Notes: a model not told the origin generated them from the letters alone. A stretch of DNA of 64,000 nucleotides from Candidatus Omnitrophota bacterium (GCA_963805065.1 CAWDSS010000010.1:339696-403695), one strand, 5' to 3'. Shown: positions 30,458-58,500, counted from the stretch's first letter. A program made the numbers and translations.

Positions 30458-30460
30458 TAC

Positions 30461-30793: not shown

Positions 30794-30796
30794 TGA

Positions 30797-31601: not shown

Positions 31602-31602
31602 A

Positions 31603-37406: not shown

Positions 37407-37492
37407 AATTAATAGCTACCCTGGAGTGGTAATAAGAAAAACGGCAGGCAACTATTGTTATGCCTGCCGTAATCGCCTGGAGAATTTATTTA

Positions 37493-37927
37493 TTATTTAC
37501 TTTCGCCTTGTTCTGACTTAGGTTCTACTTTTTCTCCGACTTCCTCTTTTTCCTTCTTTTCTTGCATCATTTTCTGCATTTCGCTCTTGGGCTTACCTGC
37601 ACACATTTCCTGTAATCCCTTTGCTAAATCCGGATTGGATTTTTGAAGAGCTGCTGAGGCATCTTGCAGAAGCTTTACTTTTGCGTCATGTTTTGTTTTC
37701 CATTCCTGCATTTCTTTTGCTTCTTTATCTGCATAATCGCTTAATCCCTTTGCTAAATCCGGATTGGATTTTTGCAGGGCTGTTGCAGAATCCCTAAGAA
37801 GCTTTACTTTTGCGTCGTGATTCATCTTCCCTGTCTTGCACCCTTCTTCCGCAAATGCTAAGCTAGAAAGAAAAACAACCATTCCCGCTACAGCTAACCC
37901 GATTACTATGGTTCGTAAAGATTTCAT
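37493..37927 (-). CDS. Secreted protein with two tandem ~46-aa repeats
   Basis: Signal peptide present. HDAKVKLL..ALQKSNPDLAKGL occurs twice, and strong SD GGAGGG precedes the start. Confidence 0.6.
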   Translation of the reverse strand: MKSLRTIVIGLAVAGMVVFLSSLAFAEEGCKTGKMNHDAKVKLLRDSATALQKSNPDLAKGLSDYADKEAKEMQEWKTKHDAKVKLLQDASAALQKSNPDLAKGLQEMCAGKPKSEMQKMMQEKKEKEEVGEKVEPKSEQGESK

Positions 37928-38128
37928 ATGTCCCTCCTTTCATATAGAGGCATAGTATAACATAAGAACCTAATTAGTAAAGTAAAAACTAACGCTATGT
38001 AAATTGTGCCATAACTTAAACAAAATTTTCTTTACATAAAAAATTAATAAACCTTGTAAAGCAACAAGAATAGTGTATACTTAGAGTGTAGACAACACAA
38101 GCTGTAGAATCAGGTTGTAGAGTCGCGG

Positions 38129-38168
38129 AAAAGGCGTCAGTAATAAACTCGACGCCTTTTCTGTTTTT
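38129..38168. terminator. Bidirectional rho-independent terminator
   Basis: AAAAGGCGTC-N12-GACGCCTTTT is followed by CTGTTTTT on the plus strand and TTTTCC on the minus strand. Confidence 0.7.
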
Positions 38169-38181
38169 AGGGACTTACCGT

Positions 38182-38448
38182 TTATTTTAACTTTTTCTCT
38201 TCCTTTACAGCTTGCCCCTCTACGTCTATAACGTTACTGTGTTTTGAAGAGAAAGAGAAGATTTTTCTCATGGCAATGCGCGCATTAAGCATAAATAATA
38301 AAATCAGGGTCCCCTCAATCAATAACCATACATGCAGCTTAAAAAACATCCAACCAAACAACAGATTGAATAATATAAGAGAAGGCAAAAAACATCCTGC
38401 CTGGCTTACAAAAAATATGGATTGATTGTGGGAATGTAATTTTGCCAT
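38182..38448 (-). CDS. Small membrane protein (88 aa, 2 TM)
   Basis: Start ATG 38448 (MAKLHSHNQ). The track start at 38496 lies inside the promoter repeat. Confidence 0.5.
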   Translation of the reverse strand: MAKLHSHNQSIFFVSQAGCFLPSLILFNLLFGWMFFKLHVWLLIEGTLILLFMLNARIAMRKIFSFSSKHSNVIDVEGQAVKEEKKLK

Positions 38449-38468
38449 ATAAAAACCCTCTGCGATAT

Positions 38469-38571
38469 ATTCTATCACAGAAGGCCATGAATTCAACCTC
38501 CGCCTCGCCCGTGCTTCCTCGCTTCCTATGCCAAACCTAATTTCCTTCCCATGCGCTAGGTAGAAACGATC
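38469..38571 (-). repeat. Promoter-bearing cassette repeat, E1
   Basis: The minus sense reads TTGAAT (38496-38491)-N16-TAGAAT (38474-38469) with a TG extension. The upstream part aligns with E2, E3 and E6. Confidence 0.75.
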
Positions 38572-39204
38572 TTAAGATTTCCGCTGCTCCTCTTGTTTTT
38601 TCTTCTCTTCGGTAACATCTCTGGCTATATGCACAAACTCGATAATCTCTCCCTTTTGATTTTTGATTGGATAAGCGGTAACCTCGGAGTAGAATTTTCC
38701 TGTAGCCCCCTGATGAAGGTGAACCTCTTTGGTTGGCATGCCGGTCTTAAGAACCTGCGCAATGGGACAGATATCATGGGGCGGTTGGCAGGGAACTTTC
38801 TGATTATGCGTGACTTCGTAGCAATACTTTCCCGTCAAGTCGTCTATTTTACACCCGAATTGGTTTAAAAATGTTTTGTTTGCCCATAATATCTTAAAAT
38901 CCTTAGAAACAAGGATTATCTGTTCCGTGATTCCGTTAACGATATTCTCCAGGAACTGATTTACTTTATACAATTCTGACTCCAAATGTTTACGCTGTTC
39001 AATCTCAATATGGAGCTGTTTATTGATGATTCGTTCCGCGGAAGTGCGGCTTTCCACCCGCTCTTCAAGGGTCAAGACGAGCTGCTTTAATTTCTCATCC
39101 TTAAGCTTCAACCTGCGCTCCAGCTTTTCGGTCCTCTCCAGCTGGCTGCTTAAAGATTCCACTTCTTTAATTAGCTGTTTGTTGGTTTTTTCTTTATTAT
39201 TCAT
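38572..39204 (-). CDS. Coiled-coil plus PAS domain protein with no output domain
   Basis: 210 aa with a heptad-rich N-terminus and a PAS-like core ITEQIILVSKDFKILWANKTFLNQFG. Confidence 0.7.
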   Translation of the reverse strand: MNNKEKTNKQLIKEVESLSSQLERTEKLERRLKLKDEKLKQLVLTLEERVESRTSAERIINKQLHIEIEQRKHLESELYKVNQFLENIVNGITEQIILVSKDFKILWANKTFLNQFGCKIDDLTGKYCYEVTHNQKVPCQPPHDICPIAQVLKTGMPTKEVHLHQGATGKFYSEVTAYPIKNQKGEIIEFVHIARDVTEEKKKQEEQRKS

Positions 39205-39225
39205 TTTATTCTCTTTCCAACATAT

Positions 39226-39340
39226 ATTCTATCACAGAGGACTATGAATTCAACATCCGCTTCGCCCGTGCTTCCCCAGGGACACTTCTATCAAAACTAA
39301 TTTACCTGCAATGTCTTATCAAGAAACGGTCTTGAGACTT
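39226..39340 (-). repeat. Promoter-bearing cassette repeat, E2
   Basis: AAGTCTCAAGACCGTTTCTTGATAAG..GGAAGCACGGGCGAAGCGGATGTTGAATTCATAGTCCTCTGTGATAGAAT. Confidence 0.8.
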
Positions 39341-39353
39341 TATTGAGACTTTA

Positions 39354-40664
39354 CTATTGAGTAAGTTTAGAACTTTTTTTCTTTGGAGAAGACATACTAC
39401 TGTTTACTGTAGAGGGCGGTTCATTTATAGCTCCGGCTTGTCTAAGTAATTGAACTATATCACTGTGGTTGCGTGATTCGGCTTTCATTAAGGCTGTTTC
39501 GCCAATATCTGATTTTACATTTACATCTACGCCTTTGGAAATAAGCAGTTCAACTATTTCTTTTTTGTGACTCTCTGCTGCAAACATCAAGGCTGTTTCA
39601 CCTTTGCTATCTTTGGCATTTATATCTGCGCCTTTAGAAAGGAGTAGTTTTGTTATTTCTTTACGGCCATAAGACGCGGCAAGCATCAAGGCTGTCTTAT
39701 GATGTGCATCTTTAGCATTTACATCTGCGCCTTTGGAAAGGAGTAGCTCTACGGCTTCTTTATTGTGACTCTCTGCTGCAAACATCAAGGCTGTTTCACC
39801 ATTATTCGCTTTGGCATTTATATTTGCACCTTTGGAAATAAGCAGCCCTACTGTTTCTTTATTACCGTAACGAAAGACGACCATTAAGGCTGTTTTACCT
39901 TTGCTATCTTTGGCGTTAACATCTGCACCTTTGGAAAGAAGCAATTCTACGGCTTCTGTACGACCATAAGACGCGGCAACTATCAATGCTGTTTCACCAT
40001 TGTTTGTCTTGGCATTTATATCTGCACCTTTGGAAAGAAGCAATTCTATTATTTCTTTGTTGCCCTCTACAGAAGATATTAAAGCTGTTTTACCCGTGTT
40101 ATCTTTGGCATTTACATCTGTACCTTTGGAAAGAAGCAGTTCTACGGCTTCTGTACGACCATAAGACGCGGCAAGCATCAAGGCTGTTTTACCGTTATCC
40201 TCTTTTGCGCTTACATCTGCGCCCTTAGAAAGAAGTAGTTCTGCTATTTCTTTGTCGCCATTAGCTGCAGCAATCATCAAAGCTGTTTTACCTTGTATAT
40301 CTTTAATATTTACATCTGCGCCTTTGGAAAGGAGTAGTTTTGCTATTTCTTTACGGCCATAAGACGCGGCAAGCATCAAGGCTGTTTTACCTTTGCTATC
40401 TTTGGCATTTACATCTTCACCCTTGGAAAGAAGCAGCTCTACGGCTTCTTTATTGTCACCCTCTGCAGCAATCATCAAAGCTGTTTTACCCTCGTCCTGT
40501 TTAGCGCTTGAATTTCCCATTGATTGTGAAATTTTCTTAGTTTTGGATTTCTTTATAGGACCGGTTAATGGATTTTCTTCTGCTTCAGCATATAATGATA
40601 CATGGTGTAAAATGGTAAACAATAACCCGAGAATTAAGCTTACAATTATAAGCTTTTTATTCAT
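39354..40664 (-). CDS. Secreted ankyrin-repeat protein (~11 ANK repeats)
   Basis: Signal peptide present, followed by 33-aa units GKTALM.AA..G..E.VELLLSKGADVNAKD, equivalent to 99-bp DNA periodicity. Confidence 0.9.
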   Translation of the reverse strand: MNKKLIIVSLILGLLFTILHHVSLYAEAEENPLTGPIKKSKTKKISQSMGNSSAKQDEGKTALMIAAEGDNKEAVELLLSKGEDVNAKDSKGKTALMLAASYGRKEIAKLLLSKGADVNIKDIQGKTALMIAAANGDKEIAELLLSKGADVSAKEDNGKTALMLAASYGRTEAVELLLSKGTDVNAKDNTGKTALISSVEGNKEIIELLLSKGADINAKTNNGETALIVAASYGRTEAVELLLSKGADVNAKDSKGKTALMVVFRYGNKETVGLLISKGANINAKANNGETALMFAAESHNKEAVELLLSKGADVNAKDAHHKTALMLAASYGRKEITKLLLSKGADINAKDSKGETALMFAAESHKKEIVELLISKGVDVNVKSDIGETALMKAESRNHSDIVQLLRQAGAINEPPSTVNSSMSSPKKKSSKLTQ

Positions 40665-40736
40665 ACGTCCTCACTTTTTTCAATTATACCACTGTCATTT
40701 AAAAATCGTAGGAAAACAAAACTCTCTGCAACATTT

Positions 40737-40848
40737 TTGTCACAGAGGGCCATAAATTCAACACCCGCCTCGCCAGTGCTTCCTCAGAGACACTTCTGTC
40801 AAAACTAATTTACCTACAATGCCTTATCAAGAAACGGTCTTGAGACTT
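40737..40848 (-). repeat. Promoter-bearing cassette repeat, E3 (degenerate -10)
   Basis: Aligns with E2 over about 110 nt. The -35 TTGAAT lies at 40764-40759. Confidence 0.75.
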
Positions 40849-40859
40849 TAATTCGAGAG

Positions 40860-41132
40860 TTATTTCTTCAGCATCTCTGGCTTAACTGCTATAACATTCA
40901 GCTTTTTATTTGCATTATCCAATTCTTTTTTTACCTTATCCAACTCTTTTTGTTTTTCCATGAGCTTACCGGTGACCTTCATAATCTCAACACCTTGTTG
41001 CTGAATAATCTGCGTTGACTTGGCTATTAATTCTTGGTTTACTTTTCCATACATAATAGTGCTTGCCACAAAAGCAATGGCTAGAATTATAACTAAAACT
41101 GATAATGTAGCTTTACTCAATTTGATATTCAT
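40860..41132 (-). CDS. Small membrane-anchored coiled-coil protein (90 aa)
   Basis: N-terminal TM helix, strong SD GGAGGG. Confidence 0.55.
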   Translation of the reverse strand: MNIKLSKATLSVLVIILAIAFVASTIMYGKVNQELIAKSTQIIQQQGVEIMKVTGKLMEKQKELDKVKKELDNANKKLNVIAVKPEMLKK

Positions 41133-41151
41133 TTTCCCTCCTTTTCAAGAA

Positions 41152-41182
41152 ATTATATCACAGAAAATCATGAATTCAACAC
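41152..41182 (-). repeat. Promoter-bearing cassette repeat, E4 (promoter core only)
   Basis: The minus sense reads TTGAAT-N16-TATAAT with a TG extension. Confidence 0.7.
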
Positions 41183-41194
41183 TCACCTTGATTG

Positions 41195-41219
41195 AACATA
41201 TCACAAATTGTGATATGTT
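41195..41219. promoter_or_regulatory. Perfect 25-bp palindrome, candidate operator
   Basis: AACATATCACAA-A-TTGTGATATGTT lies about 15 nt upstream of the E4 -35. Its half-site TGTGATA also occurs inside every E-repeat promoter spacer. Confidence 0.5.
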
Positions 41220-41247
41220 AATAGCCTACCCCCCCCATTTTTTTACT

Positions 41248-41784
41248 CTAAATATGGAACCCTATGGCTGTTGTTTGTTTTGGCGGTGTAAGCAACTGCC
41301 TGATTGCTTCAAAAATGTAATTTATTTTCTCATCATGATCCGAATATTTCTTTTCTAACTCTTCAAGCTTAATAGCAATATCCTTGCGAGTCAAGAGCAG
41401 CTCTTTTAATCTTACGAATGCACGCATTATGAGAATGTTCACTTGAATTGCCCTTTCGCTATTTAATACGCTAGATAACATGGCTACTCCCTGCTCTGTG
41501 AAAACGTAAGGCAGATACTTAATATTTTGGCCTTGTTTCAAGGTCACAATTTGTGACCTTGAATTCAAGGTCGCAAAATGCGACCTTGAAGATTCTACTT
41601 CTTCCCGCGATAACTGAAACATAAAATCATCGAGAAACCTCTTTCTGTTCCTTCGCACCTGCTCATTTAATCTCTTAGTATCAACCCCATAAAGTTTGGC
41701 TAAATCTCTATCCAACATTACCTTTCTGCCTTTCACTACTATAATCTTTGTTGCAATTGCCTCTATGGTCACAATATTAGCCAT
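41248..41784 (-). CDS. ORF6N-domain DNA-binding protein (phage antirepressor-type)
   Basis: IVVKGRKVMLDRDLAKLYGVDTKRLNEQVRRNRKRF matches my recollection of the ORF6N family. Confidence 0.7.
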   Translation of the reverse strand: MANIVTIEAIATKIIVVKGRKVMLDRDLAKLYGVDTKRLNEQVRRNRKRFLDDFMFQLSREEVESSRSHFATLNSRSQIVTLKQGQNIKYLPYVFTEQGVAMLSSVLNSERAIQVNILIMRAFVRLKELLLTRKDIAIKLEELEKKYSDHDEKINYIFEAIRQLLTPPKQTTAIGFHI

Positions 41785-41826
41785 TGTCCACCTCCTACTC
41801 TAATAGAAAGTGGAAAAATCTAACAC

Positions 41827-41966
41827 TCCCTCGCTTAAGCACTTGAAAATTTCTACGAAATTTTCTGCGTAAGCTCGGGATAAATTCGCAGACGCAGGAT
41901 ACTTTCGGGTTCAATACCGCTACACTTTACGTCACTTAGTTCCGTAAAGTGTCTGCTCATTTAAAA
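41827..41966. repeat. Composite hairpin repeat, type II (H4 + H1 variant)
   Basis: TCCCTCGCTTAAGCACTTGAAAATTTCTACGAAATTTTCTGCGTAAGCTCGGGATAAATTC.. aligns with 19012-19075. The H1 variant ACACTTTAC..GTAAAGTGT lies at 41922-41952. Confidence 0.7.
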
Positions 41967-41980
41967 AGCCCTCTGCGACA

Positions 41981-42020
41981 TATCTATCACAGAGGGCCAT
42001 GAATTCAACATCCGCCTCGT
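41981..42020 (-). repeat. Promoter-bearing cassette repeat, E5 (truncated)
   Basis: The plus strand reads TCTATCACAGAGGGCCATGAATTCAACATCCGCCTCG. Confidence 0.7.
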
Positions 42021-42034
42021 AAAGAATTAACTAT

Positions 42035-42469
42035 TTACAACCAAGTACCGGTAATTGACATTGAAGCCACAAAGAATGCCCAGAAGGAATACCATGCTAC
42101 GAGCAGAATAAAGCTTATTGTTAGCCATCTGAAACCGTTCATCTTATAAACTAAATATCCACTTACAATTAATTGAATTAAAACGATGATTTGAAGGATA
42201 AATAATGATTGCCCTGGTACTAACCTAGGATTAAATTGCGCACACATTACTGTTCCCCAAAATAAAACTAATACAGGGAAAATAATTGGTATTAATATTA
42301 ATAAATGTTTTAACTCCATCTTTATTTCCTTTTTCCTAAGGGTACATACCAACGAAAAGATAAAGTGGGCAATGATTAGTAGGGTAATCTGTAAAAAATA
42401 TCCGAATCTCGTAATTAAACATGTCAACGCCATAAAAGCAAGCCAAAGGAAATAGCGCAAATAGTACAT
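42035..42469 (-). CDS. Integral membrane protein (144 aa, ~4 TM)
   Basis: Hydrophobic throughout; SD AAGGAGA precedes ATG 42469. Confidence 0.55.
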   Translation of the reverse strand: MYYLRYFLWLAFMALTCLITRFGYFLQITLLIIAHFIFSLVCTLRKKEIKMELKHLLILIPIIFPVLVLFWGTVMCAQFNPRLVPGQSLFILQIIVLIQLIVSGYLVYKMNGFRWLTISFILLVAWYSFWAFFVASMSITGTWL

Positions 42470-42514
42470 TTATTCTCCTTTTTTTAAATTGCTTATTAAA
42501 ACAAAACCTTTGAT

Positions 42515-42602
42515 ATTCTATCACAGAGGGCCATGAATTCAACCCCCGCTCAGCTGTACTTCCTTAAGTTAGACTGCTTACCTAGAAACGGTCTTGAGAC
42601 TT
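42515..42602 (-). repeat. Promoter-bearing cassette repeat, E6
   Basis: AAGTCTCAAGACCGTTTCTAGGTAAG..GGGGGTTGAATTCATGGCCCTCTGTGATAGAAT begins about 30 nt after the SIR2 gene stop. Confidence 0.8.
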
Positions 42603-42631
42603 ATTGTAAAAAATTTAAGGCACGAGTAAGT

Positions 42632-43846
42632 TTAATAAGAAGTTAGAAACGAATCAAACTTAGAACTATTAAATAAGTTTGAAAATTTATAATCAATAAC
42701 TACAGATTCTGGTTTAATCTGAAATATTTCCGCTACAGATTTTTTCTTTTTCAGCTCATCATCTGCATTTAATTGGTCCCCTAAACATACTAATATTTTT
42801 TGTTCAATAGCCTTGCCGCGCCTAATCATACTAGGAATCTGAAATATTCTCTGAGCATGGTAGTCTGCAAAAGGAAAAGAATAGCCAATAATTATAACCA
42901 TATCTGCTTCTTTTAATAATTGGATAGCTCCTCGCCATTGGTTAATTAATAGTCTCGTAAGGGGATCTGCTAAGCGTGAATCATCATTTATTTCTTGTTT
43001 GAATATTGTCGGCGGAACGATAGCTGGTTCAACAAAGCTATTAGCAGATAAACTATTAGTTGGGTAACTAGGAGTTACGGAATCCCCATAAAACTCAATA
43101 TCATTACAACCGAACTCCATCTTCCAATTAAGTGAACCGTGTAGCTTTAAGATCAATGGTTCTTTAGAAAAACTGTCTATAAAGTAAGGATTGCCCATAT
43201 CATCATTAACACCTAAATATCGGGGATTCATGCCTAAGTTTTTTAATGATTTTTCTAGGATTAAGTCATAGTTAAACGTTATATATCCTAAGATCGAATG
43301 CCCATAGTTTGAAATCAATTTATGTAGTTTGTCGTAATTTGTTTCAATTTTATACCATAATTCTGTGACAGTTAATATTTTATCTATCAGCCTTTTCAGA
43401 TCTCTACCACAATCGCCTAAGAATTTGAATTTACTATAAGTTGGCTCCATATTCATTACAGCAAAATTTCCAGCTTCCCCTGAAATTAATGTTGTAGAAA
43501 TAACGTCAGAAAAGGGATACGAGGATTTGCCATGATTTAAACACTCTATGTGGTATCGTTCGTTTTCCTGAGACCATGAATAAGTATTCAACATGATATG
43601 TTTATGATTCAGATCTACAGCTGTCCATAGCTCTTCTAGGCTTATATTATTCTTATATGGCAGAAACCATTCTCGAAACTTATTTATTGCATAGAAATCG
43701 TCCCCGCGGTTTAATACTTCCTTAACTCCTGCATGTTCAAAGAAATTTCTATCTGTTGGCGGTGGACAACTTCTATTGTGATAATAAGTTTCAAAACCTG
43801 AATCATGCGATGCTCCGCTACCATAAACTATAACAATTTTAGACAT
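42632..43846 (-). CDS. SIR2-like (SIR2_2-type) protein, putative NAD-consuming effector
   Basis: 404 aa containing VIVYGSGASHDSG (glycine-rich NAD loop), ITFNYDLILEKS, ILKLHGSLNW and VIIIGYSFPFADYH, in the order typical of prokaryotic defence SIR2 domains. Confidence 0.75.
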   Translation of the reverse strand: MSKIVIVYGSGASHDSGFETYYHNRSCPPPTDRNFFEHAGVKEVLNRGDDFYAINKFREWFLPYKNNISLEELWTAVDLNHKHIMLNTYSWSQENERYHIECLNHGKSSYPFSDVISTTLISGEAGNFAVMNMEPTYSKFKFLGDCGRDLKRLIDKILTVTELWYKIETNYDKLHKLISNYGHSILGYITFNYDLILEKSLKNLGMNPRYLGVNDDMGNPYFIDSFSKEPLILKLHGSLNWKMEFGCNDIEFYGDSVTPSYPTNSLSANSFVEPAIVPPTIFKQEINDDSRLADPLTRLLINQWRGAIQLLKEADMVIIIGYSFPFADYHAQRIFQIPSMIRRGKAIEQKILVCLGDQLNADDELKKKKSVAEIFQIKPESVVIDYKFSNLFNSSKFDSFLTSY

Positions 43847-43893
43847 GAATTACCCCATTTATCAATTATTACAAAAAAATAATTGATGGAAAC

Positions 43894-44505
43894 TTATTCT
43901 TGCTGAAAGTCCATAGTCCCACCTACATCTATTATCTTACCCTGCTTTTTAAGCGGCTCGATTTTACTTATACTTTTAGCTAAAATTCTCTTTTGAATCG
44001 GAGATAATTTATCATAAGCTTTAAACATTTTAAAATACTGTTCTAACACTCTGTAGTTGCCAATCGCTTGTTCTTGCTTGTTCCTAAATAACAAATCTTT
44101 TAACAGCTCTCTTAATTCTTTAAGGATTTCGCCTATCCCTTCAAAGCTTATAATACCAGGAGAACCCATTCTAATATGATAGATCTTGAGAGAATTAGGT
44201 ATCACTTCTTTTTCAAAGAGTTTCCCAATAAGAGGTGAAGAAAAATTATTCGTTCGCAACACCTCAGTTAATAAACTCATCCTTACAAAATGTTGTTTTA
44301 TCGCGTACTTTTTTGGAAAGATATCATCCATATCTCTATGTTTAAGAAGAAGCAACACTTGTTTTTCTTTTCCAATATTGACTTTACAAAGAATTTCATA
44401 TATTTTTGAAATACTTGTTAGAAGAATCTTCAGATTATTTGCTGTCCATTTATTATCCGTTCTAAAAACAAGGAGCTCGAACTTTTTTACAATTTGTGTC
44501 GTCAT
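43894..44505 (-). CDS. Hypothetical protein (203 aa), middle gene of the SIR2 island
   Basis: Intact ORF with SD AAGGAGA. No motif was recognised. Confidence 0.6.
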   Translation of the reverse strand: MTTQIVKKFELLVFRTDNKWTANNLKILLTSISKIYEILCKVNIGKEKQVLLLLKHRDMDDIFPKKYAIKQHFVRMSLLTEVLRTNNFSSPLIGKLFEKEVIPNSLKIYHIRMGSPGIISFEGIGEILKELRELLKDLLFRNKQEQAIGNYRVLEQYFKMFKAYDKLSPIQKRILAKSISKIEPLKKQGKIIDVGGTMDFQQE

Positions 44506-44523
44506 TCTGATCTCCTTTAAAAA

Positions 44524-45222
44524 TTAAACTTCCGAAATAACAAAATTCATAAAATCTGTGGCATGAGAAGTTAGTCGAAAATAACCTCTTTTGTAATCAT
44601 AAGTTCCAATTGCATAGTCATAAAGTAAATTATAACGCAGAAGATCATTACAAAATGCTTCCGCTTGTGATTCAGTAATATTTAACTTTTCAGATAATTT
44701 TTTAATATCTAAAACACCCTCTGGCAGTCTGTTTTCTACTACGAATAATTTCTCATTATCTATATAAAGTTTTAGAATTTCTATGTGTAGTTCAGATAAG
44801 TCATTTACGATATTTATAAATCTTTCTTTAAAATAATAATCCGATTTACCTTTCTGTATAGAATTAACAAAAATGTTCTTAAAATATCTTACCTTTCTCT
44901 TTTCCCTACATTTAATTGCACTATCATATATTTTTAGAAATAAATAAAACGCGTCTTCGTTATTAAAGAAGTCCTTATCTATTTTACTTTCTTCGAGTTT
45001 TCTTAATGATTCGGCAATTTCTTCAAAAAGAAGGTCTGTTCTTTCTTTTATTGCTTTGGATCCCTTATATGCAAGAAGATTATCTAATAATCCGCCTACT
45101 GGATGAGGAAGCCCCTTAATAAGAACCCTTAGGTCTATGCTGTTATAATATTTTTGGGATCCTTTTACAACGATTTTATCTATTTTTTCAAGTGCTTTGA
45201 TTTTTCTAAAGAATATATTCAT
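44524..45222 (-). CDS. Hypothetical protein (232 aa), first gene of the SIR2 island; possible C-terminal winged-helix
   Basis: Intact ORF. The C-terminal stretch LSEKLNITESQAEAFCNDLLRYNLL looks HTH-like. No SD is present. Confidence 0.55.
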   Translation of the reverse strand: MNIFFRKIKALEKIDKIVVKGSQKYYNSIDLRVLIKGLPHPVGGLLDNLLAYKGSKAIKERTDLLFEEIAESLRKLEESKIDKDFFNNEDAFYLFLKIYDSAIKCREKRKVRYFKNIFVNSIQKGKSDYYFKERFINIVNDLSELHIEILKLYIDNEKLFVVENRLPEGVLDIKKLSEKLNITESQAEAFCNDLLRYNLLYDYAIGTYDYKRGYFRLTSHATDFMNFVISEV

Positions 45223-45621: not shown

Positions 45622-48600
45622 TTAGCGAGTAGGGATGGTGACGCCCTTCCTCAACATCTTCTTCCTTAATTCTTCCAGGCAGAATATCACAACCATGAAA
45701 GCAAACAACATCCCCCACTCCTGCCACCCCAGCCCAATCGTATTAAATATCTTCTGGAAGAATGGCACATAAATCAGCATGCAGGCGAAAGACAACTCAA
45801 AGACAATACCCCAAAGAATCAGCTTATTGCTGAAGAAACCGATTTTAAACGCCGAGAGCTTTTCGCTGCGGCAGGCAAACACATTAGCGATCTGCATCAC
45901 CACAATCCCTATGAACACAATTGTCGCAGCCTTAAGGTGCAAAGGATTGGTGAATGTCGTATCATTAGGTTCAAGCTGCATCCCCGGCCTCCATCCGCCC
46001 TGCAAAAGCACAAAATAATAGGCGCTTAGAACTGCTACTGAATTAAGCAATCCCAGAATTATATAGCCGCGCGAAAGCACTATTTTATCAATAACTCCTT
46101 TTTTCTTCGGCCGCGGCGGAAGCTCCATAATCCCCGGCTCGGGTTTTTCAATACCTAATGCCAGTGCCGGCAAGGTTTCTGTGCCTAAATCTATTGCCAA
46201 AATCTGCATGACTGTAATGGGCACGGGTATTTTAAGCAATACGTAAAAAATAAAGGGTATTGCTTCCGGTACAAGGTGCGCGAATATATAGGTAATGAAT
46301 TTCTTGATATTATCAAATACAGCGCGGCCTTCTTCAATAGCAGCAACAATACTGGCAAAATTATCGTCAATCAAAACCATTTCTGCCGATTCTTTTGCCA
46401 CATCTGTCCCGCGCATACCCATGGCAACACCGATATCAGCTCTTTTTAATGCCGGAGCGTCATTAACTCCGTCCCCTGTAACCGCAACAATATTTCCCAG
46501 CTCCTTAAAAATATTTACCACCCTTAATTTATGCTCTGGGTTAACCCTGGCAAACACAACTTCTTTCTTTGTAAGCTTATCTTTTAACTGCTCATCGCTT
46601 AAATCTGCCAATTCTATTCCTGTAATAACTTCAGGGTTGTCCGAAGCAACAATGCCTACTTGCCGCGCAATTGATAGAGCGGTTATCTGGTAATCGCCTG
46701 TAATCATCACTACCCGGATTCCTGCTTTCCTACAAACAGCGACTGCTTGTTTTACTTCCGGCCTGGGCGGGTCATACATCGCTGCGATACCGATAAAAAT
46801 TAAATCCTTTTCCACTGTCTGCGCTGTTGCATCCGGAATATCTTTAGCTTCCAGGTTACGGCAAGCAAAACCCAGGATGCGTAATCCATCCTGGGCAAAA
46901 TTATCAATCTGACGAATAATCTCTGATTTCTTTTCTGGTGTTAAATCAATACTGTCTTTGCCAACCATGATTTTGCCGGAAAGTTCAAGCAGCTCCTTGG
47001 GAGCTCCCTTCACACAAGCACAAAGCTTCCCCTCCGCAAGCTTATTGATGGTGCTCATTCTTTTACGCACGGATTCAAAAGGAAAACGCTTCTGGAATGG
47101 ATAATTCTGGCGTTCCTTTTCATTATCAAAACCTGCTTTTAGAGCCAGGGTTAATAATGCTCCTTCAGTAGGATCTCCTATTATGCTCCAGTAATTTTGG
47201 GCTTCTGTGGGAGCAACAAGCTTTGCCGTATTGCATAAAACTCCTGCACGGATTAAAATATCCAGATTATCATTCTTAAGGTCATTGCTGGAAATCGCCT
47301 TTCCACTAAGAATAAATTCGCCCTCAGGGTCATAACCGCTGCCTGTAACCTCTATTACCTTATTATTAATCCATATTTTCCTTACGCTCATTTGATTAGT
47401 AGTGAGCGTGCCTGTTTTGTCTGTGCAGATCACATTTGTGCAGCCAAGCGTTTCAACAGAAGAAAGTTTTTTAATTAAGGCGTGCTTCTTTGCCATCCTT
47501 AACACAGCCATGGAAAGCGCAAGCGTGAGTGTCGGCATAAGGCCCTGGGGAACATTAGCCAGGATAATTCCTATGGCAAACATTGCCGAGGCAATCAAGG
47601 TCATCTTGGTAAAAGCCAAACCTACGAAAAAGAAAATAAACCCCATAAGAACTGATATTCCCGCGATTAATTGGCTGATACGGTTTACTTCTCTTTGTAG
47701 CGGGCTTAACTCTTCTTTAACGGTTTGCGTTAAATAAGCGATTTTGCCGATTTCTGTAGCCATGCCAGTAGCAACTACTACGGCTTTACCCATGCCAGAG
47801 GCTACGCTGGTACCTGCGAAAACCAAATTAGGCATTTCCAGCCACAAGAAACCCTTACTATCATGAAAAGCCTCTGCCATCTTATGCGAAAGTTTTGATT
47901 CACCGGAGAAAGCACTGTTATTTACGCGTAGCTCCTGCGCTTCAATCAACCTGGCATCAGCAGGGATGTTATCCCCTTCCTCTATAATAATGATATCTCC
48001 CGGCACAATGTCGCTGGTAGGAACTTTTTTCTCCGTGCCCTCCCGTATTACGCGGGCAAAAGAAGGAATCAACTTATTTAAAGCCTGTATTGCCTTCTCT
48101 GCCTTGGATTCCTGCCAGAAACTGAATATCGCGTTGACAAAAATTACAACTATGCATGCCCATCCTGCTTCAGGCATCTGCGCCAGGAAACAAAGCGCGC
48201 CGCCTACCCACATGAGGATTGCCAACAAATTAGTAAAATTAGATAAGAAACGGATAATCAGGGGAGTTTTCCTTATGGCCTTTAATTTATTCAGGCCGTA
48301 TACTTCCAGGCGTTTTTTGGCAGATACTTCGGAAATCCCGTTATCACTACTGGCAAGCTCCAGATAAATCTCATCCTTGGTTAATGCCAGGAATTCTTCT
48401 CTTTCAATTCCCTTTTGCTTAAACAAGCGAAAAAGCTCATCGTTGTTTGGGGAATTCAGAAGCTGGCTGGTAAATACTTTATTGTTTAGCAGGCTTACTA
48501 TTTTAGAGAGGATTTTTAAATGCAACTCGCTTTCTAAAAGAGGGGTGAGAAAAAGCATGACTAGATTTACAGGTTTTCCGTCCAGAGAAGAAAATTTTAT

Positions 48601-48858
48601 GCCTTGCTTGGAAACGCCCACAAACAAGACTGCCTCTTTTAACTCGGCAATTCTTGCGTGCGGGATAGCCACGCCATTTCCTATGCCGGTAGTGCCCAGT
48701 TTCTCTCTCTTAAGCAGGCTCTCTAAAACCTGTTTTTTATCTTTAATCTTGCGGCACTTATACAGCTGGTCCACAATTTCCAGAATTACGCCTTCTGAGG
48801 TAGTGGATTTTAAACTTGCATTCAACTGCTCTTTAAATACTAAATCGGAAATCTTCAT
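45622..48858 (-). CDS. Cation-transporting P-type ATPase (type II/III-like) with an N-terminal PTS EIIA(Ntr)-type domain
   Basis: ATPase motifs DKTGTLT, TGDGVNDAPAL and MITGD are present. The N-terminal ~150 aa (about 48408-48858) carry GTTGIGNGVAIPHAR..SLDGKPV..HLKILSKIVSLL, paralogous to ptsN in this window. Start ATG 48858 (MKISDLV) follows AAGGAA. Confidence 0.9.
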   Translation of the reverse strand: MKISDLVFKEQLNASLKSTTSEGVILEIVDQLYKCRKIKDKKQVLESLLKREKLGTTGIGNGVAIPHARIAELKEAVLFVGVSKQGIKFSSLDGKPVNLVMLFLTPLLESELHLKILSKIVSLLNNKVFTSQLLNSPNNDELFRLFKQKGIEREEFLALTKDEIYLELASSDNGISEVSAKKRLEVYGLNKLKAIRKTPLIIRFLSNFTNLLAILMWVGGALCFLAQMPEAGWACIVVIFVNAIFSFWQESKAEKAIQALNKLIPSFARVIREGTEKKVPTSDIVPGDIIIIEEGDNIPADARLIEAQELRVNNSAFSGESKLSHKMAEAFHDSKGFLWLEMPNLVFAGTSVASGMGKAVVVATGMATEIGKIAYLTQTVKEELSPLQREVNRISQLIAGISVLMGFIFFFVGLAFTKMTLIASAMFAIGIILANVPQGLMPTLTLALSMAVLRMAKKHALIKKLSSVETLGCTNVICTDKTGTLTTNQMSVRKIWINNKVIEVTGSGYDPEGEFILSGKAISSNDLKNDNLDILIRAGVLCNTAKLVAPTEAQNYWSIIGDPTEGALLTLALKAGFDNEKERQNYPFQKRFPFESVRKRMSTINKLAEGKLCACVKGAPKELLELSGKIMVGKDSIDLTPEKKSEIIRQIDNFAQDGLRILGFACRNLEAKDIPDATAQTVEKDLIFIGIAAMYDPPRPEVKQAVAVCRKAGIRVVMITGDYQITALSIARQVGIVASDNPEVITGIELADLSDEQLKDKLTKKEVVFARVNPEHKLRVVNIFKELGNIVAVTGDGVNDAPALKRADIGVAMGMRGTDVAKESAEMVLIDDNFASIVAAIEEGRAVFDNIKKFITYIFAHLVPEAIPFIFYVLLKIPVPITVMQILAIDLGTETLPALALGIEKPEPGIMELPPRPKKKGVIDKIVLSRGYIILGLLNSVAVLSAYYFVLLQGGWRPGMQLEPNDTTFTNPLHLKAATIVFIGIVVMQIANVFACRSEKLSAFKIGFFSNKLILWGIVFELSFACMLIYVPFFQKIFNTIGLGWQEWGMLFAFMVVIFCLEELRKKMLRKGVTIPTR

Positions 48859-48880
48859 ATGTTCCTTTCTTACGCCTCTA

Positions 48881-48911
48881 CAAAAACTAAACCAGAGAAC
48901 GCCTTCTCTGG
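48881..48911 (-). terminator. Leader (attenuator) terminator just upstream of the ATPase RBS
   Basis: The minus sense reads CCAGAGAA-GGCG-TTCTCTGG followed by TTTAGTTTTTG. An upstream GAGAAC can compete for GTTCTC. Confidence 0.6.
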
Positions 48912-49121
48912 TGTGTTCTCTCAATCGGGCTTACGAGGTTAGCTGTCGGGCTCGGGCTGAGTTACCCTAATCCTTTTTAAGGGATATTCGCCCCAAAAGG
49001 GGCGTACTTGGCAATCCTTTATGCCAAGGTGCGCCCCAAGATCTCATCACAAGATCAATCTTGGTTTCCCCGCTATCTTTTAATTCTACAAAAACAAGAA
49101 TTAAAAGAGATTAAGCATATT
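48912..49121 (-). promoter_or_regulatory. Structured 5' leader of the ATPase gene (unclassified riboswitch or attenuator candidate)
   Basis: Helices include CCAAGAT..ATCTTGG and CTTGGCA..TGCCAAG. CGCCCC can pair either with the upstream GGGGCG or with the downstream TTTT-GGGGCG, which are mutually exclusive. Confidence 0.45.
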
Positions 49122-49127: not shown

Positions 49128-49155
49128 ATATTACCATAAAAAACTGTTTTGTCAA
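49128..49155 (-). promoter_or_regulatory. Sigma70-type promoter of the ATPase gene
   Basis: The minus sense reads TTGACA-N16-TAATAT with a TG extension, which implies a leader of about 260 nt. Confidence 0.55.
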
Positions 49156-53169: not shown

Positions 53170-53961
53170 CTAACCGAAGAATTTATCTCCCTGCGCCTTA
53201 ATTATTTGCCGGGCTGCTTTTCTGCCTGATAGAAGCATTCCGCCAAATATCGGCCCCATGCGCGGACCTCCAAATACGGCATTTGCGCACATTCCACAGG
53301 CATAAAGCCCGGGGCAAATTTCTTTGGAGTTCTTTACTATGGTATCTTCTCCTACCTCTGCCCACATCGATTGTTCACCCATAATTTTGCCGGTTTTGGT
53401 ATTCAGCTTAATTCCGGATTTTCGTTCCACAATCCGCGCTACCTCTGCAGGATGTCCGGTAGCATCAACCACGAATTTCGCTCTCATGGTAATCGGATCA
53501 ACATGCAGGTTAGCCATTTCCACAGACGTCCAGTTTAAAACTAAGCCGCAAACACGCTTAGTCCTTACCATTACATCCTCGACACTTAAAAGGTTAAAAA
53601 TCTTTAAACCAGCATGTACGCTTTGCGAACATATCGTAGACACTGCATCTATGGAATCAGCAAGATAATAACCATCTTCATATTTTCTGGTTTTGACTCC
53701 AAACTCATCAAGAATTTTCTTCGCCTCTTTTTGCACTACTATCTGATTAAACATTATCCCGCCGCCCCACATGCCTCCGCCTACGGATAGTTTACGCTCA
53801 AATAAAACTACCTTTACTTTAGCCTTAGCCAAATAGTATCCGCATACCATGCCCGCTGGACCGGCTCCGGCTATTGCCACATCTACATCCAGAGATTCAA
53901 TCAGCTTATTATTGTAAGATTCGATAATTGCCCGTGATATTTTTATTTCATCCAATGCCAT
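53170..53961 (-). CDS. thi4: Thiazole synthase, Thi4 family
   Basis: [34 protein letters not shown] motif; preceded by a TPP riboswitch. Confidence 0.9.
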
Positions 53962-54030
53962 TTTAGTGCTCCTTTCGTTTACCCCAAAACAAAACCCCTA
54001 TGCCATTTGCATAAGGGTTATACATTCATT

Positions 54031-54127
54031 CCTCCTTTCCCTCCGCTGGCATTATCCAGATCAGGTTCATCGGGTAATCCGCTTATTTCGCGAAACTCTC
54101 AGGCTGACCTACAGCCTCCCCAGTTCT
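54031..54127 (-). promoter_or_regulatory. TPP (THI-box) riboswitch
   Basis: The minus sense reads ACTGGGGAGGCTGTAGGTCAGCCTGAGAGTTTCGCGAAATAAGCGGATTACCCGATGAACCTGATCTGGATAATGCCAGCGGAGGGAAAGGAGG. It contains the CTGAGA, ACCC, TGAACCTGATC-GGATAATGCC-GCG and AGGGA blocks. Confidence 0.9.
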
Positions 54128-54153
54128 GACAACAATATTATTAAATCATAAAA

Positions 54154-55580
54154 TTAAGTATCTAACAAGTACTTATCAATACCCTCTGCTGCCAGCCTTC
54201 CTTCCTGAATCGCCCAAACAATTAAGGATTGGCCCCTGTGCATATCTCCGCAAGAAAACACTCTCTTTGCTGAAGTCATAAAGTTTTCATCGGTTTTGAC
54301 ATTGCCGCGCGTATCCAATGCTAAATTAAGCTCTTCTATGGGGCCTTTTTTCTCCGGATGCAGGAACCCCAAAGCCAGGATTACCAAATCCGCTTCAATT
54401 TCAAATCCTGAACCAGCTACTTCTTTCATCACCAGGCAGCCGGTTGCGTCTTTTTTAAATTCAACCCTTACACAGGAAAGTTTGTTAACTTGACCGTTTT
54501 TGCCTATGAATTTTTTGGTTAAGACCGCCCAATCTCTTTTGCCCCCTTCTTCATGGCTGGTAGAGGTTTTTAACAGCATGGGGTATTTTGGCCAAGGGCA
54601 ATCACAGGTGCGGCATTCCGCAGGCTTAGCTAAAAGTTCAATCTGGACCACACAGTTTGCTTTTTGCCTGTGCGCTACTCCCACGCAATCAGCGCCAGTA
54701 TCTCCGCCGCCGATAACCACGACTTTTTTATTTTTCGCATCAATGATATTTTCAGGCGTAAATTTAGCTCCTGCTATCCTCTTATTTGATTGTATTAAAT
54801 AATCCATGGCAAAATAAATGCCTTCTAGATCCCTGCCCTCGATACTTAAATCTCGAGGCGCGCGGCTGCCTGCAGCAAGGCAAACCGCATCAAATTCCTT
54901 TAATAATTTTTGCGCACTTTTATCCACTCCTACATTAACCTTAGTTTTAAATTTAATCCCTTCCTCCTCCCAGATTTTAATCCGCCTGTCTATAATCCAT
55001 TTTTCCAGTTTAAAATCCGGGATACCGTAGCGCAAGATCCCTCCCGATATTATCGTCCCTTTCAAACACAACCACGCTATGCCCGGCCTTATTCAATTCG
55101 GTCAGCGCAAGATAAGCCTGCTGGCCCGGAACCAATAACTGCAATTTTTTTGCCAGTGCGTTTTTTAGGCGGCCTGGACTTGATTAATCCTTGTTTAAAA
55201 GCCTGCTCAATAATCGCTAATTCATTTTCCCTTATTGTTACCGGGTCATCATTAATCCCTAAAACGCAGGCATATTCGCAGGGCGCAGGGCAAACCCTGC
55301 CGGTAATTTCCGGAAGATTATTTGTAGCATCCAGCAATTGAAACGCCCTCTCCCAATGCCCGTGAAATACCAAGTCATTCCATTCGGGAATATAATTTCC
55401 AATGGGACAGCCCCAATGGCAAAAAGGCGTACCGCAATCCATGCAGCGGGAAGCCTGGTCCTTAGAATGCTCTTCCTTGGGCAGCAAATTTACTTCCGCG
55501 AAATCCTTTATCCTTTCGCAGACCAGCCTGGGTTTTGTTGCTTCCCGCTTAATTTTCAAGAAACCTTTAACATCACCCAT
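54154..55580 (-). pseudogene. gltD: Glutamate synthase small subunit (NADPH), with two frameshifts
   Basis: The pieces are 55580-55089 and 55071-54154. The linker [29 protein letters not shown] reads in a third frame. The breaks are at about 55099 and 55039-55047. Confidence 0.85.
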
Positions 55581-58500
55581 CCGACACCTCGGCCAAATCT
55601 TCTTTCTCTTCTAAGATTTGTTCTTGTAAAATACGCTTATACTCTAAAGGCATAACTTTGACAAAATTATTTATTTCTTTCTCAAAATCATCCAGTATTC
55701 TTTTTGCCATGTCACTTTTTGTATACCTGTAATGATTATTCAGTAAATTTCTTATGGTTTCTTTATCAGCTTCAGCGGGCCCCTCTAATACAACCATACC
55801 CAGATTGCATTTATGTTCAAAATCTTTATCCGCATCATAGACATAGGCAATGCCGCCGGACATGCCAGCGCCAAAATTCCTGCCGGTCTTACCTAACACA
55901 ACCACCCTTCCTCCGGTCATATATTCACAACCATGGTCTCCCACTCCCTCAACCACTGCATAACAGCCCGGAATTTCTGATGCAAAATCTTTCTCCGGCA
56001 ACGCCGCTGATATATGCCTCTCCGTTGATTGCGCCATAAAAAGTGGTATTGCCTATAATAATATTCTCTTCCGGTTTATAAGTTGCTGTTTTTATCCGGA
56101 TAAATAATAATTTTTCCTCCGGAAATACCTTTGCCTACATAATCATTAGCCATGCCTTCTAATTCAAAAGTAATTCCTTTGGCCAAGCCAGGCGCCGAAA
56201 CTCTGGCCGGCCACGCCTTTAAATTTGCAATATATAGTATCCTCGCGTAAGGCCCTCTTCCCCGAACCTCCTGCAAACTTCTCCGCTTAACATTGCACCG
56301 GTAGTGCGGTTGGTATTTTTAATATCCTGTTCAATCTTTACCGGCTGGCTATTTTCTAATGCCGGCTTAGCCAATTCTATGAGTTTTAAATCCAGAATTT
56401 TGTCAATTCCATGGTCTTGTTTAATCACGCAATGAGTTCTAATCTCTTTGCTCACCTTTGGCCTGTAAAGAATGTTAGAAAAATCTATTTCTTTAGCTTT
56501 CCAGGGTAAGATTACTTTATTCGTTTCTAATAAATCAGTCCTGCCAATCATCTCATCGATACTTATGTATTCCGAAGGACGCCATAATTTCGCGTAATTC
56601 CTCAGCCACAAAACGAAAATAATTCATCAGGTATTCGGGCCTGCCCTGAAATCTTTTCTCCAGAATCTCATCCTGTGTGGCAATACCCAAAGAACAATTA
56701 TTCAGATTACAATGCCTTAGCATCACACAGCCCAAGACTACTAAAGCAGCGGTGCAAAAACCAAATTCTTCAGCGCCTAATATGGCGGCAATGGCAACAT
56801 CGCGGCCGGTGCGCATTTGTCCGTCGGTCTGAAGCCGCACCCTGCTTCTTAAATCATTTAACACCAGGGTCTGGTGTGTTTCTGAAATTCCCAGCTCCCA
56901 GGGAAGCCCCGCATGCTTAATTGAACTTAAAGGCGATGCGCCTGTTCCTCCGTCTCCTCCGGAAATTAAAATCATATCCGCATGGCCTTTGGCTACACCC
57001 GCGGCAATAGTCCCCACTCCGATTTCAGAAACTAATTTTACGCTGATGCGCGCTTTGGGGTTTACATTTTTCAAATCAAAAATCAATTGCGCCAAATCTT
57101 CAATGGAATAAATATCGTGATGCGGAGGCGGTGAGATTAAAGTCACTCCCGGAGTCGTATAACGTGTGCTGCGCGATAATTGCGCTGACTTTATGCCCGG
57201 GAAGCTGGCCGCCTTCTCCGGGTTTTGCGCCCTGGGCAATTTTAATTTGTAATTCATCGGCATTCACCAGATAATTCGTAGTCACTCCGAACCTGCCGGA
57301 GGCAACTTGTTTTATGGCGCTACGCACAGAATCGCCGTTGGGTAAGGGCGCGAAACGCGCAGGATCTTCTCCTCCCTCGCCGGTATTGGATTTGGCTTTC
57401 AGCCTGTTCATGGCAATAGCAATAGTTTCATGCGCCGACCTGCTAATTGAACCAAAACTCATTGCACCCGTGGCAAAACGCCTGACAATTTCATCTACAG
57501 GCTCAACTTTCTCTAAAGGAATGGGGCTAGGTTTCTTGAATTTAATCAGGCTTCTTAAGGTAGTAGGATTTTTTGACTGGTCATTGATCAATTTCGCAAA
57601 TTCCTGGTATTTTTTATAATTATTTTCCCGGGTTGCATCCTGCAAGGCAGAAATCGTATCAGGATTCCAAAGATGAAATTCCCCGTCTCTTTTCCACTGG
57701 TAAATTCCTCCGGTAGCTAAATAGGGAGTTTCGATTTTGTTGTTGGAAAAGGCTTGTTTATGCCTTAATATTGTCTCCTGCTCAATCGCTTTAAGATCAG
57801 CGCCGCCTATTCTGGATACTGTTCCTGTAAAGTATTTTTCAATAACATCGACGTTTAGGCCGAGTGCCTCAAATATTTGCGCACCCCGGTAACTTTGTAA
57901 AGTTGAAATCCCCATCTTGGAAAGTATCTTGAAGATGCCCTTATCAACTGCCTTTATGTAATGATGCAGCGCTGTCTCTAAATCTAAAGTCAACCCTTCC
58001 TGTTTTAACATATAACCGACTGCTTCATAGGCAAGATACGGGTTAATGCAATCAGCGCCATAGCCAAACAAAAGCGCAAAATGATGCACTTCCCTGGGCT
58101 CTGCACTCTCCACAATTATACTTATTTGCGTGCGTAAAGCCTTGCGGGTGAGATGATGGTGCATAGCTGCCACAGCTAAAAGCGAAGGTAATGCCGCATA
58201 ATCCGCATTCACTCCCCGGTCACTTAAAATAATAAATGTATAACCTTTTTTTATGGCTTGAGTTGCTTGTTGGCATATTTTATCTAACGCGCTCTTAAAA
58301 CTGCTTTTTCCGGAAGCCCTAAACAGTAATGATATTGTTTTGGTTTTAAAATTATTTATTTTAATTTTGCGTATTCGTTCTAATTCTTCGTTGCTCAAGA
58401 TAGGCTGTTTAACGTGCAGCTTATGGCAGTGTTGGTGAGTTTCCTGCAAAATATTTTTCTCAGGGCCAAGGTACATATCCAGGCTCATCACCAGCTCTTC

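Follow-up and report, generated by a model that had tools for sequence, protein, structure and literature searches.

We identified, in a 64,000-nucleotide stretch of DNA from Candidatus Omnitrophota bacterium (GCA_963805065.1, CAWDSS010000010.1:339696-403695; the whole stretch is referred to here as the window), a gene in which an EIIA domain of the phosphoenolpyruvate (PEP)-dependent phosphotransferase system (PTS) is fused to the N-terminus of a P-type cation ATPase (45622-48858, minus strand), and whose leader contains a riboswitch for cyclic di-AMP (c-di-AMP). The ingredients are individually known, but their combination, a PTS EIIA domain with a P2C-like pump and a c-di-AMP riboswitch, is undescribed. 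In the literature that we searched, neither an EIIA-P-type ATPase fusion nor a P-type ATPase other than Kdp under a c-di-AMP riboswitch is described, an absence that is not thereby proven. We consider it somewhat probable, at a little better than even, that the gene is a monocistronic unit, switched off by c-di-AMP, for a monovalent-cation pump tuned by its EIIA domain and most likely serving K+ uptake.

Identification and integrity of the fusion gene

The minus-strand open reading frame (ORF) spanning 45622-48924 has no interruption and encodes 1078 amino acids (aa) from the ATG at 48858 to the stop codon at 45622-45624. The same start methionine (M1) is present in at least 90% of 120 homologous sequences. 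Pfam analysis places PTS_EIIA_2 (PF00359) at aa 9-148, where it scores 110.3 bits (cut-off 27; E 1e-31) and spans profile positions 5-143 of 144, followed by Cation_ATPase_N (159-223), E1-E2_ATPase (262-458), Hydrolase (476-808), Cation_ATPase (540-629) and Cation_ATPase_C (878-1067). The protein comprises an N-terminal EIIA domain of the fructose/mannitol/Ntr family (aa 1-150; 48409-48858), delimited by Pfam, matches in the Protein Data Bank (PDB), an AlphaFold2 (AF2) model and Foldseek; a linker (aa 151-158; 48385-48408), with low predicted local distance difference test (pLDDT) values at residues 153-156; and a P-type ATPase core (aa 159-1078; 45625-48384), delimited by Pfam, NCBIfam, PDB matches and motifs. 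Phe156 in the linker and Leu159, which opens the next segment, are invariant columns across the 120 homologues.

Many housekeeping genes of the window are split or truncated (23245-25528, 54154-60123, 61394-62440 and 14544-19057). The H+-pyrophosphatase (H+-PPase) lies in two ORFs with a change of frame near 24174-24184, glutamate synthase is broken into three pieces in its large subunit (gltB) and into two in its small subunit (gltD), and glutamine synthetase (glnA), carA, carB and CTP synthase (pyrG) are shortened. This suggests an indel-rich (perhaps long-read) assembly or genuine pseudogenes, with the pump gene intact. Because the assembly is so rich in split genes, the question of whether the fusion is an artefact, that is, two neighbouring genes merged through an assembly or indel error, needed testing. 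A preliminary description of the window, made from the DNA alone, had voiced the same worry of an assembly join, or of an overlooked stop or frameshift near 48400, and none is present there. An identical fusion protein is encoded on an independent Logan contig (L081). The same Pfam architecture, PF00359 plus the ATPase domains, occurs at near-equal length and 70-82% identity in 118 of 119 further clusters (90%-identity clusters from JGI, ENA, NCBI and Logan assemblies), the exception being a 964-aa cluster without PF00359 (P0108). Fused versions are also found in metagenome-assembled genomes (MAGs) classified in at least four other phyla, and the invariance of Phe156 and Leu159 likewise speaks against a chance join. 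On these grounds we reject the assembly-join artefact, to which we assign a practically negligible probability. The fusion proposed in the preliminary description stands as one uninterrupted gene with Pfam domains of both partners, and the survey of EIIA-plus-ATPase architectures that it had recommended returned the 118 clusters together with distant fused versions.

The N-terminal EIIA domain

The N-terminal domain belongs to the fructose/mannitol/Ntr family of PTS EIIA domains, with both the EIIA fold and the phospho-acceptor residues intact. The first ~150 residues of the protein had been called a paralogue of a stand-alone EIIA encoded elsewhere in the window (2952-3422, minus strand; 156 aa; PF00359, E 7e-39), and the two are indeed 38% identical (BLASTP E 3e-29), with the GxGxAIPHA, SLDG and HLKxL blocks in common. 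The closest solved relatives by sequence are the PtsN structures 3urr, 4gqx, 1a6j and 2a0j (E 1e-20 to 1e-16), and EIIA(Mtl) matches far more weakly (E about 1e-6). In the AF2 model of aa 1-262, the mean pLDDT per 10-residue block is about 74-93 over aa 1-150. A Foldseek search of the PDB with this model placed four PtsN entries on top (six chain hits), and superposition on 3urr, 2a0j, 4gqx and 1a6j gave TM(target) scores of 0.86-0.93 at a root-mean-square deviation of 1.5-1.7 Å, which bears out the EIIA fold on which the preliminary description had staked its proposal.

The phospho-acceptor His67, in the GxGxAIPH motif (codon 48658-48660, minus strand), is conserved together with Arg51 and His113. 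These three residues are kept in at least 90-100% of the 120 homologues, and both histidines are kept in the fused proteins labelled Brocadiaceae, Fibrobacter, delta and spirochaete. The earlier statement that the phosphorylatable histidine is retained among orthologues therefore holds for close and distant fused proteins alike. Neither the fused domain (84.5 bits) nor the free EIIA (87.3 bits) passes the cut-off of the NCBIfam PtsN equivalog (TIGR01419 / PRK10896; 138.7 bits).

The ATPase core and its ion site

Judged by its sequence, the core is a complete type-II P-type ATPase closest to the alpha chains of H,K- and Na,K-ATPases, which are its best PDB matches (E about 1e-163). The NCBIfam model for HAD-IC P-type ATPases (TIGR01494) is passed with 301.6 bits (cut-off 62.3). 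The IIC model (TIGR01106) is the best-scoring subfamily at 636.2 bits, yet this score lies under its cut-off of 946.1. The catalytic motifs SGES (318-321), DKTGT with Asp480 (codon 47419-47421) and TGDGVNDAPAL (794-804) are intact, and they are invariant or nearly so among the 120 homologues.

Of the seven canonical P2C cation-site residues (Na,K-ATPase numbering), E779 (Glu865, in transmembrane helix (TM) 5) and D804 (Asp890, TM6) alone are unchanged. E327 is replaced by Gln438 in TM4 (VPQGL), S775 by His861 and N776 by Leu862 in TM5, D808 by Glu894 in TM6, and D926 by Asn992 in TM8; within the clade, all seven positions show little or no variation. These substitutions rule out a 3Na/2K pump, and the residues present are probably those of a reduced monovalent-cation site with a single site II. 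By alignment with the PDB chains, His861 lies at what we take to be the position of the built-in lysine (Lys791) of gastric H,K-ATPase. Reading ion specificity from the TM residues, as had been suggested in the preliminary description, thus excluded 3Na/2K exchange and left K+ as a guess. We noticed no beta-subunit gene beside the pump in the window or in 11 orthologous loci, no search having been aimed at it.

A c-di-AMP riboswitch in the 5' leader

The conserved c-di-AMP riboswitch is the strongest functional clue for the pump. The aptamer (ydaO/yuaA class, Rfam RF00379; 48913-49127, minus strand) scored 73.1 bits in cmscan (gathering score 38; E 3.6e-17) and covers model positions 1-134 of 134. 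It lies a short way beyond the 45622-48858 interval and was absent from the preliminary description. Upstream of the aptamer, a consensus scan yielded, by pattern match only, a candidate sigma-70-like promoter (49128-49155, minus strand; TTGACA, 16 nt, TG-TAATAT) with 10 of 12 consensus matches and an extended -10 TG, located just downstream of the stop of an ABC-ATPase gene (49214). On the other side of the aptamer, a terminator scan detected an intrinsic-terminator-like hairpin, ACCAGAGAAGGCGTTCTCTGGT, with a U-rich tail (48881-48912, minus strand). The leader is therefore ordered as promoter-like site, aptamer, GC hairpin and U-run, a sequence resembling a ribosome-binding site (AGAAAGGAAC) and the ATG at 48858, with the hairpin and U-run lying within the 54 nt between aptamer end and ATG. 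RNAfold of the aptamer-to-ATG spacers gave a GC hairpin and then a U-run in all eight leaders that were folded (8/8), and the hairpin at 48881-48912 is likely the expression platform of the riboswitch.

In all 11 of the orthologous loci sampled (L001 and L082-L091), the same aptamer (72-93 bits) lies on the same strand immediately upstream of the gene for the fusion. In locus L086 the riboswitch is followed by a TrkH gene, with 8 nt between the end of that gene and the ATPase gene. In Bacillus and its relatives, riboswitches of the ydaO/c-di-AMP class repress the K+ importers KimA, KtrAB and KdpFABC at high c-di-AMP (PMC11302148, PMC11018627). Conservation of this riboswitch on the pump gene points strongly to a K+ or osmotic role. 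The window also contains a thiamine pyrophosphate (TPP) riboswitch (RF00059; 57.9 bits, gathering score 54.3; 54021-54132, minus strand), directly upstream of a Thi4-family thiazole synthase gene (53170-53961).

PTS relay genes in the window

As the preliminary description had stated, Enzyme I (EI), HPr and the free EIIA are all encoded at 1-3422, EI being partial. The HPr-type phosphocarrier (1232-1528, minus strand; 98 aa; Pfam PTS-HPr, E 3e-33) has His15-type and Ser46-type motifs and is the presumed phosphoryl donor. Only the N-terminal 414 aa of EI are present, as the gene ends at the window edge (1-1245, minus strand; Pfam PEP-utilisers_N, PEP-utilizers and PEP-utilizers_C). The protein opens with PEP-utilisers_N at residue 1, and an in-frame stop (1264-1266) lies 7 codons upstream of its ATG (1243-1245). 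It is of the PtsI type: PtsP is defined by an N-terminal GAF domain, which is missing here, and the relay is thus of the general EI/HPr kind and not a canonical PTS-Ntr. What had been described as a complete PTS-Ntr relay therefore holds for the presence of EI, HPr and free EIIA but not for the Ntr assignment, given the lack of GAF in EI and the failure of either EIIA to reach the PtsN cut-off.

Pfam detected no PTS EIIB or EIIC in the scanned ORFs of the window (46 of 52 ORFs with 150 aa or more), in agreement with the earlier remark that no sugar EIIB/C is visible. ORFs outside the scan were 4450-5010, 5020-5742 and 5742-6269 (minus strand), as well as five plus-strand ORFs that overlap scanned genes. 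Their absence from the scanned ORFs of the window would fit a purely regulatory PTS. The free EIIA gene lies between tRNA genes and a group made up of the YvcK/CofD-like, HPr and EI genes; linkage of the ptsN type to rpoN, hpf or rapZ was not seen, nor was a sigma-54 gene found in the Pfam-scanned ORFs. The YvcK/CofD-family gene (1696-2937, minus strand) encodes 413 aa with an N-terminal membrane segment and lies between free EIIA and HPr, giving the order EIIA-YvcK-HPr-EI, without rapZ, hprK or rpoN.

Distribution and relatives

Distant fused versions, with 33-46% identity, were identified in MAGs labelled Brocadiaceae, Fibrobacter/Fibrobacteraceae, Deltaproteobacteria/Desulfobaccales and Spirochaetaceae/Rectinema. 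They came from a scan of one genome per species with an alignment that bridges the two parts of the fusion (aa 1-262), and the matches extend over the junction wholly or for the most part. Among 1.84 billion representatives clustered at 50% identity, about two dozen clusters reach across it. Taxonomic labels of the homologues are divided between Omnitrophota/Omnitrophica and Phycisphaerae, and members are named in databases as 'HAD-IC family P-type ATPase' or, confusingly, 'fructose-specific PTS IIA component'. The nearest unfused relatives are pumps of cyanobacteria, Methanobacterium, Geobacter, Sporolactobacillus and Clostridia. The fused pumps form two groups in a neighbour-joining tree, which is too rough to distinguish one fusion event from two.

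Domains similar to the EIIA of the pump are also fused to proteins of the Na_H_Exchanger family of cation:proton antiporters (CPA). The proteins P0139, P0142, P0146, P0160 and P0163 (770-906 aa) have two tandem C-terminal PTS_EIIA_2 domains, which are among the closest relatives of the N-terminal domain of the pump. These proteins represent another type of fusion between EIIA and a cation transporter, one that has apparently not been studied. Because similar EIIA domains are fused to this family as well, control of cation transport by EIIA in cis appears to be a recurrent design. Another protein, P0127 (655 aa), contains an amino-acid-permease domain, an EIIA domain and the start of an ATPase whose end is missing, and represents either a triple fusion or an erroneous gene merger.

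Gene neighbourhoods

In the window, a cluster resembling group-4 membrane-bound [NiFe]-hydrogenases and Mrp antiporters lies at 26562-36304 (minus strand). It encodes three Proton_antipo_M proteins, NuoJ-, NuoD/NiFe- and NuoH-like subunits and a HycI protease, and it is followed by MotA/ExbB and H+-PPase genes (23245-26565, minus strand). In locus L082 (6413-23125), the PPase and the hydrogenase cluster directly flank the fused pump gene, with nothing intervening on the hydrogenase side. In the window, the pump and the hydrogenase cluster are separated by a variable-looking island (36486-45222, minus strand) that encodes class-A beta-lactamase-like, PAS, 436-aa ankyrin-repeat, ORF6N-domain and SIR2_2-like proteins, as well as two ORFs with no Pfam match (43894-44505 and 44524-45222). 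Further away, a 643-aa ORF with no Pfam match at E <=1e-5 (20592-22523, minus strand) adjoins a gene for a 459-aa HD/HD_5-domain protein (19229-20608).

Genes of nitrogen metabolism also recur near the pump. P-II and ammonium-transporter genes are found on both sides in locus L089 (1-11219), glnA is directly downstream in locus L090 (7381-8715), and glutamate synthase and glutamine synthetase are encoded 5-14 kb upstream of the pump in the window (54154-62440). These recurring nitrogen-assimilation neighbours may be a coincidence or may hint at a link between NH4+ and K+. The neighbours of the distant fused genes are uninformative (an AAA/DUF4143 protein, sigma factors, CheR, a P1B ATPase, ZIP and Fe-ADH).

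Proposed mechanism and alternatives

We propose that the promoter, the c-di-AMP OFF-riboswitch with its intrinsic terminator and the gene for the 1078-aa pump would form one unit. At high c-di-AMP, which in studied bacteria reflects K+ or osmotic sufficiency, transcription would terminate in the leader and the pump would not be made. Once synthesised, the pump would be tuned by a phosphorelay from PEP through EI and HPr to His67. The phosphorylation state of EIIA may alter its docking on the cytoplasmic domains and thereby shift the E1/E2 cycle, a form of cis-acting autoregulation. In this protein EIIA takes the place of the usual N-terminal tail, with a linker of 8-10 residues to the segment entering the actuator domain. 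Regulation of the pump by phosphotransfer is plausible, and the direction of the effect, activation or inhibition, is beyond prediction from sequence. The transported ion would most likely be K+, imported in exchange for H+ or Na+, so that the pump would provide ATP-driven uptake independent of Kdp; in favour of this, the core is closest to the K+-countertransporting H,K and Na,K pumps.

Several observations weigh against this K+-uptake model. The choice of K+ is a guess, as it is based on the regulation and on one TrkH neighbour. c-di-AMP riboswitches also govern genes unrelated to K+, such as those of osmolyte transporters and cell-wall enzymes, and we noticed no c-di-AMP cyclase in the window, where no search was aimed at cyclases. 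The riboswitch was not found in 9 distant fused loci, nor in 12 non-fused relatives, and is specific to the Omnitrophota-type clade of fused pumps. With its five changes (E327Q, S775H, N776L, D808E and D926N), the ion site is unlike that of any characterised pump. Distant fused clades differ at this site: in the Fibrobacter-type pumps PEGL is combined with the TM5 and TM6 residues seen here, and the Brocadiaceae/delta-type pumps retain E, S, N, E, D and D as in Na,K-ATPases. The EIIA module thus accompanies more than one type of ion site and is not bound to a single ion. The neighbourhoods of the orthologues vary, with PPase and Mrp-hydrogenase genes in L082, P-II and Amt genes in L089 and glnA in L090. 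No PTS genes adjoin the pump here or in 80 related loci searched by tblastn with EI, HPr, YvcK and EIIA queries. The full-length AF2 model, built from a 120-sequence alignment, has a pLDDT of 69, a predicted template modelling score of 0.57 and an A domain below 50, and no domain interface can be read from it; our structural reading of EIIA is taken from the model of aa 1-262 alone. More generally, prokaryotic P2C-like pumps are uncharacterised, and their function is an open question (2023 review, PMC10654040).

The vicinity of ion-motive modules raises the alternative that a pump of the same architecture, with the same riboswitch, exports Na+ or H+ as part of an ion-motive cycle, its inputs adjusting the osmotic and energetic balance. 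The L082 pump has a membrane pyrophosphatase on one side and a [NiFe]-hydrogenase cluster of the Mrp-antiporter type on the other, and the same modules lie 9-22 kb from the pump in the window. The core is as similar to Na,K-ATPases as to H,K-ATPases, and the fusion of related EIIA domains to Na_H_Exchanger proteins fits this role too. We nevertheless regard export as rather unlikely: the PPase/Mrp adjacency is seen in 1 of the 11 loci, the residues of the Na+-specific third site are missing (Asn in place of Asp926), TrkH shares the riboswitch-controlled pair in one orthologue, and known targets of c-di-AMP riboswitches are mainly K+ importers (PMC11302148, PMC11018627). The nitrogen genes described above raise a different idea, that the pump moves ammonium, a congener of K+, for nitrogen assimilation, with EIIA in a 'nitrogen PTS' role. 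K+ sites of P2C pumps accept NH4+, and P-II, Amt, glnA and glutamate synthase genes are found beside or near the pump. This adjacency is limited to 2 of 11 loci in neighbourhoods that are not conserved, EI is without the GAF domain by which PtsP senses nitrogen status, Amt channels already exist, and the c-di-AMP riboswitch indicates K+ or osmotic control; we consider ammonium transport very improbable.

A further alternative concerns the EIIA domain itself, which might never be phosphorylated and might instead be a structural or ligand-binding regulator of PTS descent, comparable to the cytoplasmic domain of Band 3/SLC4. In these eukaryotic proteins an EIIA-fold domain is likewise N-terminal to a transporter. 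Band 3/SLC4 cytoplasmic domains appear lower in the same Foldseek list as PtsN, Pfam Band_3_cyto gives a weak match to the free EIIA, and some distant fused proteins have relaxed motifs, with AILH, AIFH or SLPH in place of AIPH. The absence of PTS genes beside the pump in any locus is also consistent with such a regulator. Set against this are the presence of EI and HPr in the same genome without visible sugar permeases and the retention of the histidine in every distant fused clade examined. As conservation of His67, Arg51 and His113, which form the catalytic trio of EIIA(Ntr), is hard to explain otherwise, we favour phosphotransfer to EIIA and consider an unphosphorylated domain distinctly unlikely.

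Comparison with known systems

In Proteobacteria, free EIIA(Ntr)/PtsN acts on K+ systems (TrkA, KdpD and YcgO). The N-terminal domain of the fusion belongs to the same domain family as PtsN, has the same catalytic residues and has PtsN structures as its closest matches. PtsN acts in trans on Trk, a sensor kinase or a CPA antiporter, whereas here EIIA is a covalent part of a P2-type ATPase and would act, if at all, in cis. PtsN controls Kdp via KdpD (PMC9239096), and its binding to the cytoplasmic region of the K+/H+ antiporter YcgO depends on phosphorylation, the unphosphorylated form being the one that binds YcgO directly and inhibits it (PMC11808508). In the canonical PTS-Ntr, PtsP has a GAF domain, unlike the EI in the window, and both EIIA proteins here score under the PtsN cut-off. 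A precedent for the fusion of a PTS EIIA domain to a non-PTS transporter is LacS of Streptococcus and Lactobacillus, in which HPr-dependent phosphorylation of an EIIA(Glc)-like domain modulates transport (PMC10710835). The LacS domain is of the glucose class and is C-terminal on a sugar/H+ carrier, in contrast to the N-terminal fructose/mannitol/Ntr-class domain on a primary ion pump described here.

The alpha chains of Na,K- and H,K-ATPases (P2C) have DKTGT, TGDGVNDAPAL, TM6 IDLGT(D/E) and TM5 PE motifs in common with the fusion, which differs in scoring below the IIC cut-off (636 vs 946), in its ion-site changes and in having EIIA in place of the N-terminal tail. A terminal cytoplasmic domain placed to control the catalytic cycle is also found in the calmodulin-binding tail of PMCA, the R domains of plant and fungal H+-ATPases and the metal-binding domains of P1B ATPases, although none of these is a PTS protein or controlled by histidine phosphorylation, and such regulatory termini are mostly eukaryotic (PMC10654040). 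The riboswitch has its counterpart upstream of kimA, of ktrAB and of the kdpFABC of Bacillus thuringiensis/anthracis, where the same class, with a terminator, precedes a cation transporter gene (PMC11302148, PMC11018627), and the kdp product is likewise a P-type ATPase complex. KdpFABC, however, is a P1A complex, whereas the fusion is a single-chain P2-type ATPase with a built-in PTS-type input; and those importers belong to Firmicutes, whereas the fusion is found in MAGs of the Planctomycetes-Verrucomicrobia-Chlamydiae (PVC) group labelled Omnitrophota or Phycisphaerae. Each step of the proposed mechanism has a precedent, either in trans or in another family, in PtsN-YcgO, LacS and the terminal ATPase domains.

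Significance

Where bacteria have been studied well, EIIA proteins of the PtsN type affect K+ homeostasis only in trans, through contacts that are poorly understood. The covalent fusion offers a one-polypeptide system in which to follow how EIIA phosphorylation controls a transporter, and it provides a functional handle on prokaryotic P-type ATPases of the Na,K/H,K-like kind, the role of which a recent review counts among the open questions (PMC10654040). It is possible, though we hold it to be less than an even prospect, that the fusion represents a new class of ATP-driven K+ pump, single-chain, P2C-like and Kdp-independent, that it is the first P-type ATPase under PTS histidine phosphorylation, that it answers to two global signals, and that 'PTS-in-cis' control extends across phyla. 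If this is true, one unit would combine c-di-AMP at the RNA level with the PEP/HPr phosphorylation state at the protein level, and PTS and c-di-AMP signalling would converge on a single pump in a little-studied, mostly uncultured lineage. The presence of EIIA on pumps that differ in their ion sites and on carriers of the Na+/H+-exchanger family would then amount to a general 'PTS-in-cis' mode of regulating cation transport in several phyla without sugar PTS permeases.

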